In this document: piece by piece, positions 56,866-59,800 of the stretch
Layout: each line of letters begins with the position of its first letter
How positions within the stretch are numbered: the stretch's first letter is position 1
Source of the DNA: Escherichia coli
GTDB taxonomy: Bacteria; Pseudomonadota; Gammaproteobacteria; Enterobacterales; Enterobacteriaceae
Assembly: GCF_048403405.1 (NCBI RefSeq)
Contig: NZ_CP183129.1
DNA length: 64,000 nucleotides
Strand: one strand, 5' to 3'
Program-made: the position numbers

Positions 56866-59800
56866 TCGCTGCCAGCCAGGCAACGCTCAATCCACTGCGC
56901 CGTGGTTTCCGGATCTTTTGCTTGTGGCAGTAACTTGCTACCAGCAGGGTCCTGTTTTTCATACAGCACCCGCATCCCTTCATGGTCGATCAAATTGATT
57001 TGCGGGCAGCGCTGCGGATTAGCATACACTTCACCTTCAGTACCATGCATTAGTAGCGCCCGCCCGCCGATATCGCTAAAGAACTTCGCGACGCGTCCAA
57101 TGTATTCCGGATGCGAAACGCTGGAAAGACGCAGTGCCTCACCTTCGGCAAATGGCGTCGCCAGTTTCGCCAGGGTATGTGCACTGTTACGCACGCCCAT
57201 CCGCCAGCGCATCGCCAGTTGTTTTTCCAGCGGCGGGCAAAACGCGCCGACAGGCATAAACACCGGTTGATGTTCGTCGAGCTTCGCCTGCGCCTGCCCG
57301 CCGTGCAACGTTGGCGTAATACCCATCAGTTCGAAAATGGTTTCTGTCAGCACGCGGGTTGGATCTTCGCTAACCCCGTGAACCACCACAGGAAAACCGA
57401 GTTTATGCAGGAGAATCGCCAACAACGGCGTCAGGTTGGCCTGTTTACGCGCGCCGTTGTAACTGGGGATGACAATCGGCATCGGCTTGTCTGCAGGCGG
57501 CGTCAGCTTGATGGTGTGATTTTGCATGGCTTCGTAAAAGCCGAGCATCTCTGCTTCCCCTTCCCCTTTGATACGCAGCGCAATCAATACGCCGCCCAAC
57601 TCAAGGTCAGGGACTTCACCATTGAGCATATGGGCATACAGACCGCGCGCAGTATCCCGGTCTAAATCGCGCGCGTGGTTTTTCCCGCGCCCGATCTCTT
57701 TAATGATTTTGCGATAGTCCATTTACGACTCCTTACCTGACTCACATCATTAACGCCGCCGACGGCGTGGGGATTTCGTTTTTTCTTTCTTTTTAACTAT
57801 ACCTTCAGGGGCTTCCGGTTGCTCTATCGGAAATACCGGTAATGCATCCAGTAGCCGCTTGCCGTAGTTTTTGGTGAGCAAGCGTTTATCGTAAATCACC
57901 ACTTCGCCCCAGCAACCGTGGCTTCGAATCAGTCGCCCAACCTGCTGAATCAGGTTAAACGAGGCGCTCGGCAGGCTTTGCACCTCAAACGGATAGCGGT
58001 TGAGGCTTTTCAGCCATTCCCCTTCGGTGATCACCACCGGGCTGTCGATGGGCGGAAAAGCGATTTTGTGGATATGCACCTGGCTGAGCAGATCACCTTT
58101 CAAATCAAGCCCTTCGGCAAAGGACTGTAAGCCCACCAGCACACTACGCTCACCGTTGGCAACGCGTTTGCGGTGCAGTTCAACTAAGCGATAACGCGGC
58201 TGATCGCCCTGCACCAGCAACATCAGGCGTAAATCCGTCACATAGTCGAGAAAGCGCTGCATCGCCCGTCCGCTGGCAAACAGTACCAACATACCGAGAT
58301 GTTTTTTGCTCTCCACCTGCTCACGGAAAAAGGCCGCCATTTCAGCAATGTGCTGCTCTTCGTTGTCGATGGAAGGCTCAAAGCGCATCCGGGGAATAAC
58401 AATTTTGCCCTGTTCGCAGTGGTTAAAGGGCGAATCCAGCGCCACAAAGCGGTCGCCCGCTTTCTCTTTCAGACCACTCATCTCCTGCAAACGCGAAAAA
58501 CTGTTCAGCGAACGTAAGGTCGCGGAAGTGACAATAATGTGCGGAATACTGCGCCACAGCAGCCTTTCCAGCTGATCGCTGACACGAATACCCACACAGT
58601 GAAACCAGATATGCAGCTGCCCTTCGCGCTCTTCCCGCGTCGCCCATTTGGTCACCGGCGCACCGGAAGATTGCGCCAGAGACGCCAGCCGCCAGAGTTT
58701 GCTTTGCGCCTCGAACATCCCCAGCGCGCGGTTCATCTGTAAAATAAACCGATGCAGACGCACAATATCGTGGCTGCCGGTTTTCTCACTTAAATCGTTA
58801 AGAAATAACTCCGCCAGGCCACGCAGCATCTCGGTGAGTTTTGCCAGCCGCTGGCAGATCTCCAGCACTTCATCTGGCAGTTCGCCCATCGCAAAACGGT
58901 GCTCTGCCTCCTGCCCGGCAGGCATGTAGAGATTGAGAATGTTGTTTAACGAGGCGATAAGCTCATACAACTCTTCACAATGCGCATTCAAACGTTCAGG
59001 GATCGCCAGCGGCGGGATGGTCTTCGGGCGAAACTGCTCCATGCAGGTAGCGACCAGTTTCGTGAACAAGTCCAGCTGTAGCCGATACCACGGCGCGGTG
59101 ATTTCGGCACTCATCTCCAGCGCATCCCGCGCCACATCTGGCAGGTGATGACCTTCGTCCAGCACCAGCAGCAAATTTTTCGGGTCAGGCAATACGGCTT
59201 CGCTTTCCATCGCCGCCATCACCAGCGCATGGTTTGCCACCACCACTTCCGCTTCCTGAATCTCCCGACGAGCGACAAAAAACGGGCATTCGCGATAGTA
59301 ATAACAGTTGCGGTTGAGGCAGCTGGCTTTGTCGGTACTCAACCGACGCCAGAGATCATCATCAATGGCGATATCCGTATGATCGCGCAGACCATCCCAT
59401 TTATAAGTGTCGAGATCGCCCTTCAACTTTGCACAACGCTTTTGCTCTTCCTGATTGTTCGGCGTCAGCTCGTCGTCAAGAAACGCCAGCAGATCCTGTT
59501 GCGTGGGCTCGCCGTCAGATTTCGCGGGCAAACGTAGCGCCCACGACCAAAAGCGGCAGTGAATTTAAGATCGGGAATGATCTTTTTCAGCAGTGGCAAA
59601 TCTTTGCTGTAGATCTGATCCTGCAATGCCACGTTGGCGGTGCTCACCACCAGCGTTTTTTGCTCTTCGCGGGCAATGGCGATGCCGGGAATCAAATAGG
59701 AGAGCGTTTTCCCAACGCCAGTGGGGGCTTCAATCGCCAGATGCCGCCCTTCTTCTCCGGCCAGCGTTTTGGCGACGTCCGCAATCATCTGCCGCTGCGG

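Follow-up and report, generated by a model that had tools for sequence, protein, structure and literature searches.

Genomic context of dinG

The window, that is the whole 64-kb stretch of DNA analysed here, is a segment of an Escherichia coli chromosome which, judging from the annotation of syntenic relatives, extends from rcdA (just past ybjL) to a genomic island beside rhlE. The gene dinG is located on the minus strand (57750–59887); a reading of this strand and the ORF listing place the ATG at 59887 and the native stop codon at 57750–57752. The gene is frame-disrupted and has a length of 2,138 bp, as compared to 2,151 bp in the relatives. The locus is orthologous to that of the relatives: dinG has the same neighbours, ybiB and hcxB, and the DNA identity outside a single gap is 100%. 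According to the literature, dinG is a LexA-repressed SOS gene (2025 DinG review, PMC11981726) and forms a LexA-controlled operon with ybiB (PMC10123104). The latter gene, which is downstream in the operon, is intact in the ORF listing (56760–57722, minus strand) and is separated from dinG by 27 bp.

The predicted LexA operator (SOS box) of dinG is positioned upstream of the start codon, in agreement with membership in the LexA regulon, and is identical in the relatives. It was found as an exact, single match of TATTGGCTGTTTATACAGTA at 59902–59921 (minus strand), 15 bp upstream of the ATG. This sequence is presumably the operator described for dinG by Lewis et al. 1992. The ~95 bp immediately preceding the ATG are unchanged in close relatives and also in a strain without the island.

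The AT-rich island between dinG and rhlE (60171–64000) has a GC content of 30–41%, as compared to 52–58% in the core. Its boundary is located ~100 bp upstream of the dinG ATG. The island encodes a 670-aa SopA-like protein (60171–62183, minus strand) with matches to the Pfam families SopA and SopA_C, which assign it to the HECT-type E3 ligase effector family. A gene for a 561-aa hypothetical protein begins on the plus strand at ~62488, and its first part is within the window. In other strains, the same position is occupied by ybiA (NADAR). A 12-kb query containing the island was covered to 80% or more in about 528 of the 5,426 complete genomes, and the annotation of the island in other genomes varies between 'type III effector' and 'espX2'.

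Two further gene groups in the window were recognized from the annotation of syntenic relatives. A RelE/ParE-family toxin and an HTH antitoxin form a pair between rimO and dgcI (~10770–11475). A LacI-family regulator, an MFS transporter, and a GH31 glycoside hydrolase are clustered between ybiU and ybiT (~30390–35470); this cluster looks like an accessory sugar-utilisation module.

Structure of the disrupted gene

The coding sequence of dinG is split over two reading frames. The N-terminal fragment (59465–59887, minus strand) encodes 140 amino acids, namely 126 native residues ending with ...CPRNLTA and a 14-residue frameshift tail, SPRNRICWRFLTTS, after which a stop codon follows. This fragment contains the Walker A motif APTGVGKT and Cys120. 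The C-terminal remainder is in the -1 frame (57750–59531, minus strand; 593 codons, open from a TTG at 59531) and covers native DinG from Glu131/Pro132 onwards up to residue 716, including Cys194, Cys199, and Cys205 and the later helicase motifs. It reads ...EPTQQDLLAFLDDEL... and continues through the native C-terminus ...SPRRRRR. A scripted comparison revealed no mismatches to dinG of the relatives outside the gap. The intact product of the latter (WP_001218649.1) has a length of 716 aa, carries cysteines at positions 120, 194, 199, and 205, and aligns over residues 1–716 to PDB entry 6FWR.

The DinG equivalog profile of NCBIfam, NF008729, has a cutoff of 598 bits. Intact DinG of the relatives scored 1053 bits over profile positions 2–702. 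The 140-aa product scored 212 bits, below the cutoff, and matched positions 2–129 only, while the ORF in the -1 frame scored 822 bits over positions 133–702 and contained nothing of positions 1–132. No single polypeptide of the broken gene thus gives a full-length match above the cutoff. Similarly, the Walker A motif and the later helicase motifs do not occur on one chain, APTGVGKT being part of the 140-aa fragment and the rest being encoded in the other frame. The same is true of the four Fe-S cysteines: Cys120 is encoded before the frameshift, and the codons of the other three follow it in the -1 frame. As in a frameshift pseudogene, the frame is broken relative to the intact orthologues in close relatives.

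Extent and context of the deletion

Base-level alignments to strains TUM14771, 4621, and MS 69-1 (CP146675), together with the scripted comparison, identified the sequence absent from dinG as 13 bp, gene nucleotides 379–391, CTTGCCAGCACTG. Owing to a 1-bp G ambiguity, GCTTGCCAGCACT is an equivalent placement of the gap. Codons 127–130 (Leu-Ala-Ser-Thr) are lost completely, and codon 131 lacks its first base. The junction (59509–59511, minus strand) is located between 59510 and 59509. Ala126 is the last residue in the native frame, and a ribosome that starts at the normal ATG would terminate after 140 codons.

These data agree well with a preliminary description of the locus made from the sequence alone. 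The break after ...RNLTA, with the gene continuing in a second frame, was recovered both by reading of the minus strand and in the ORF listing, and the junction falls inside the interval to which the lesion had been assigned (59495–59540). A stop at the 15th codon after the break and a product of 140 aa were obtained from the ORF listing and the scripted comparison. The loss, which had been estimated as about four codons plus one nucleotide, is exactly 13 bp in the alignments to the three close relatives. The length of 716 aa and the cysteine positions 194, 199, and 205, which had been given for K-12 DinG, match the intact protein of the relatives and its alignment to 6FWR. The LexA box was correctly described as intact. 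Finally, the lesion had been said to differ from a simple homopolymer slip, and the gap is indeed situated in non-repetitive, non-homopolymer sequence.

Inspection of the missing 13 bp revealed no Dam or Dcm motif. No repeat flanks the deletion; within 100 bp, only chance matches of 6–7 nt were detected, none of which brackets the gap, and the microhomology at the junction amounts to 1 bp. The predicted single-strand fold of the region is no better than that of shuffled sequences (z = -0.67), so that no notable local fold is present at this site. Slippage mediated by a repeat or a hairpin was rejected as the origin of the deletion, since repeats do not bracket the gap and the fold is unremarkable. 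The deletion appears to have arisen without the help of either.

Occurrence in other genomes

A 281-bp query spanning the junction matched 5,420 of the 5,426 complete RefSeq E. coli genomes. The deletion was present in none of these ~5,420 genomes: each listed match spans 294 bp, and the top identity was 95.6%, which corresponds to 13 gap columns. The preliminary description had allowed for the case that the reference gene has the same sequence. The difference from the orthologues (281 bp here versus 294 bp in ~5,420 complete E. coli genomes) is no chance pattern, and none of these genomes shares it.

A 301-bp query was too conserved to single out close relatives. The six closest genomes (4621, MS 69-1, TUM1226, TUM14771, GN02461, and OX030728) are 99.8–100% identical to the window over the 12–24-kb segments compared, and full-length dinG is annotated in all six. 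In addition, a 716-aa DinG adjoins the identical SopA-like gene in each of the 25 longest public contigs encoding that neighbour. A search for the same deletion in other genomes of the lineage, as proposed in the preliminary description, was negative for these six genomes and 25 contigs. Its use as a lineage marker was rejected, the gene being intact throughout this set.

Exact look-up of seven plausible gene-caller products of the broken dinG in a collection of ~15 billion proteins gave no match. The junction 30-mer, CGAAATCTGACGGCGAGCCCACGCAACAGG, had no exact match in 100,044 GTDB species representatives or in JGI metagenome contigs. Within the sequences searched, the deletion is a singleton, private to one strain or assembly.

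One of the close relatives, NZ_OX030728.1, deserves a separate remark. It has the 13 bp of dinG intact (294-bp span) and nonetheless matches the 12,001-bp query (52000–64000) over exactly 12,001 bp, with 99.8% identity. Judging from these lengths, this genome must therefore have indels of its own elsewhere in the region, possibly owing to a noisier assembly.

Companion differences in the window

The whole 64 kb was compared with strain 4621, and every difference was then checked against MS 69-1. Four differences from both strains are private to the window, and three of these are frame-breaking deletions in coding genes. Between strains 4621 and MS 69-1, by contrast, this 64-kb segment shows just two SNPs and a single 2-bp indel, which is intergenic.

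The sole private base substitution is an intergenic A-to-G change at 9208, which abuts a T6 run and is located 12 bp upstream of rimO. The same allele occurs in four of 5,424 genomes, all unrelated. The second difference is a shortening of an A4 run to A3 (plus strand) at 20578, in codon 37 of 623 of the minus-strand gene gsiA (gene start 20688), which encodes a glutathione-importer ATPase. The predicted 56-aa product is too short to reach the first Walker A motif. None of the 5,425 complete E. coli genomes with a match at this site carries the allele, and neither of two gsiA fragment products was present in the ~15-billion-protein collection (exact look-up). The third is a shortening of an A6 run to A5 at 49894, in codon 278 of 308 of rlmF (49843–50727, minus strand). 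The 13-bp deletion at 59509/59510 with its 140-aa product (0 of 5,420 genomes) is the fourth.

The A5 allele of rlmF was detected in two of 5,415 complete RefSeq E. coli genomes. Its predicted product has 294 aa with an altered C-terminus; the protein collection lists the identical sequence, WP_001448092.1, for 42 contigs (65 blocks). Several of these contigs belong to noisy assemblies with shattered neighbouring genes. Several others, including one from a complete genome, carry an IS4-family insertion in fiu; from their appearance, we take these to be Shigella sonnei, and the source annotation of the 294-aa protein names S. sonnei. The allele is probably real in these Shigella sonnei-like contigs. 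The A6 run is thus a place where a base is repeatedly lost, by natural slips as well as by sequencing errors. As a lead to a second occurrence, the truncated RlmF pointed to unrelated lineages only, namely the Shigella sonnei-like contigs and the noisy assemblies.

Judged by these four sites, indels make up a far larger share of the private differences than is normal for divergence within E. coli. Such a spectrum agrees with an indel-prone consensus, as in long-read-only or 454-type assemblies, or with a mutator background rich in indels.

Origin of the deletion

We lean towards the view that dinG is here a null allele, produced by a single, very recent 13-bp deletion that is private to one strain or assembly. 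The lesion is exactly defined, the rest of the gene displays no mismatches, the operator and promoter region are unchanged, and the two fragments split the NF008729 profile at positions 129/133. To our knowledge, a 13-bp deletion in non-repetitive, non-homopolymer sequence is not a usual error mode of any sequencing platform. Since a loss of this size in unique sequence is atypical of consensus error, we rate a real mutation slightly ahead of an artefact, and the features of the sequence, which are those of a frameshift pseudogene, are on balance better read in this way. Against a real mutation speaks the company in which the lesion occurs: three of the four private differences break a frame, two are situated in A runs, and a T6 run directly follows the SNP. 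A singleton that lacks secondary decay is, moreover, also what an artefact is expected to look like.

It is quite possible, as the preliminary description had allowed, that the real dinG is intact and that sequencing or assembly dropped the 13 bases, like the single bases in gsiA and rlmF. Three of the four private differences are deletions, all of them within genes and two in homopolymers, and among ~5,400 complete genomes the alleles concerned occur rarely or not at all (dinG, 0; gsiA, 0; rlmF, 2). The same error-like rlmF allele recurs in several assemblies with fragmented neighbouring genes. Also, the source genome is outside the RefSeq complete-genome set, and dinG has no other sign of decay. 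On the other hand, a clean 13-bp loss from unique sequence, with neither a homopolymer nor a Dam or Dcm motif, would be unusual for a consensus error, and the whole 64-kb sequence consists of the letters A, C, G, and T only. The presence of the rlmF A5 allele in contigs with the IS4-family insertion in fiu implies that slips of this kind can be real.

We regard as unlikely a broader version of the mutational reading, in which the deletions in dinG, gsiA, and rlmF are all real. The source would then be a human-associated isolate that went through an indel-rich burst, either as a mismatch-repair-deficient hypermutator or as an early reductive, pseudogene-accumulating lineage, and that lost the SOS helicase while keeping its regulation.

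A split gene that is still functional, by means of programmed -1 ribosomal frameshifting or as a two-polypeptide helicase, is very improbable. The two frames do overlap by ~100 nt (59567–59465), and a -1 shift in this overlap would yield a near-full-length DinG lacking 4–5 residues. Programmed recoding is very unlikely, however, because the overlap contains no slippery heptamer of the type X XXY YYZ, its sole homopolymer run being T4, and because the two-frame layout occurs in none of ~5,420 orthologues and is thus not a conserved recoding signal. Neither is there a notable local structure (z = -0.67). A helicase made of two chains would have the Walker A motif and Cys120 on one and Cys194, Cys199, and Cys205 on the other, and no strong internal start precedes the C-terminal part.

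It is hardly credible that the neighbouring AT-rich island with its SopA-like effector gene gave rise to the deletion, either by inserting or by its activity, in spite of the short distance from the island boundary to the dinG ATG, since the lesion is ~475 bp away from this boundary, inside conserved core sequence, and since the identical island and junction adjoin an intact dinG in every relative examined (the six nearest genomes and 25 further contigs). By this comparison, the deletion is unrelated to the horizontally acquired island. The preliminary description had placed the lesion directly beside the AT-rich island; the proximity is correct (GC 30–41% from ~60,000), but the relevance which it implied is not, given that relatives with the same island have an intact dinG.

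Predicted consequences

If the deletion is real, as we are inclined to think, a single recent event would have removed codons 127–130 and shifted the frame, so that translation would stop after 140 codons. The resulting product would retain helicase motif I and a single one of the four Fe-S cysteines, Cys120, and would not form a helicase. The other three cysteines and the remaining motifs would stay in the -1 frame, to which no canonical ribosome route should lead. Because the LexA operator and the promoter region are unchanged, the locus would presumably still be de-repressed after DNA damage, upon cleavage of LexA, but no helicase would be made. The ~1.7 kb of untranslated dinG mRNA may cause Rho-dependent polarity and lower the expression of the co-transcribed ybiB.

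The loss of dinG would probably be tolerated, because the gene is dispensable, its mutants display only slight sensitivity to UV and H2O2, and DinG overlaps functionally with Rep, UvrD, and YoaA (PMC11981726).

With a real deletion, the isolate would be an E. coli strain naturally null for dinG (and for gsiA), which could serve as a convenient background for studies of R-loop removal by DinG, of replication-transcription conflicts, and of ybiB polarity, and the indel-rich private spectrum would hint at a mutator genotype. If the deletion is an artefact, the consensus would contain about one frame-breaking error per ~20 kb, and apparent pseudogenes in this assembly would be suspect. In either case, the significance beyond the strain itself is small.

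Comparison with known systems

The locus reveals no new family, mechanism, or regulatory principle. It is a known gene with an ordinary lesion, of which only the allele is unrecorded. The reference system is E. coli DinG, an XPD/Rad3-like SF2 Fe-S DNA helicase (6FWR/6FWS; NF008729), with which the gene studied here shares its identity, its locus (rhlE ... dinG-ybiB), and its LexA operator. It differs from this reference in that the frame is broken at codon 127, and no single chain combines motif I, the full four-cysteine cluster, and the later motifs.

YoaA, the SOS-induced paralogue of DinG, belongs to the same helicase family; DinG matches the YoaA model with 326 bits, below the cutoff of that model. 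In contrast to dinG, it is encoded by a different gene elsewhere in the genome, outside the 64-kb segment. It is plausible that YoaA acts as a partial back-up and helps to explain why the loss of dinG is tolerated (PMC11981726).

The lesion resembles strain-specific frameshift pseudogenes of dispensable genes in E. coli and Shigella, in which a gene is likewise well preserved apart from one small indel, close relatives have intact orthologues, and the regulatory signals are retained. Unlike Shigella pseudogenes, the indel in dinG comprises 13 bp without a repeat or homopolymer context, is confined to one sequence, and is not a lineage marker. A second resemblance is to the consensus errors of long-read-only and 454-era assemblies, which are deletion-biased, frame-breaking singletons in coding genes. 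The changes from A4 to A3 in gsiA and from A6 to A5 in rlmF fit this pattern exactly. Typical consensus errors, however, affect 1–2 bp in homopolymers or methylation motifs, whereas the loss in dinG comprises 13 bp of unique sequence.
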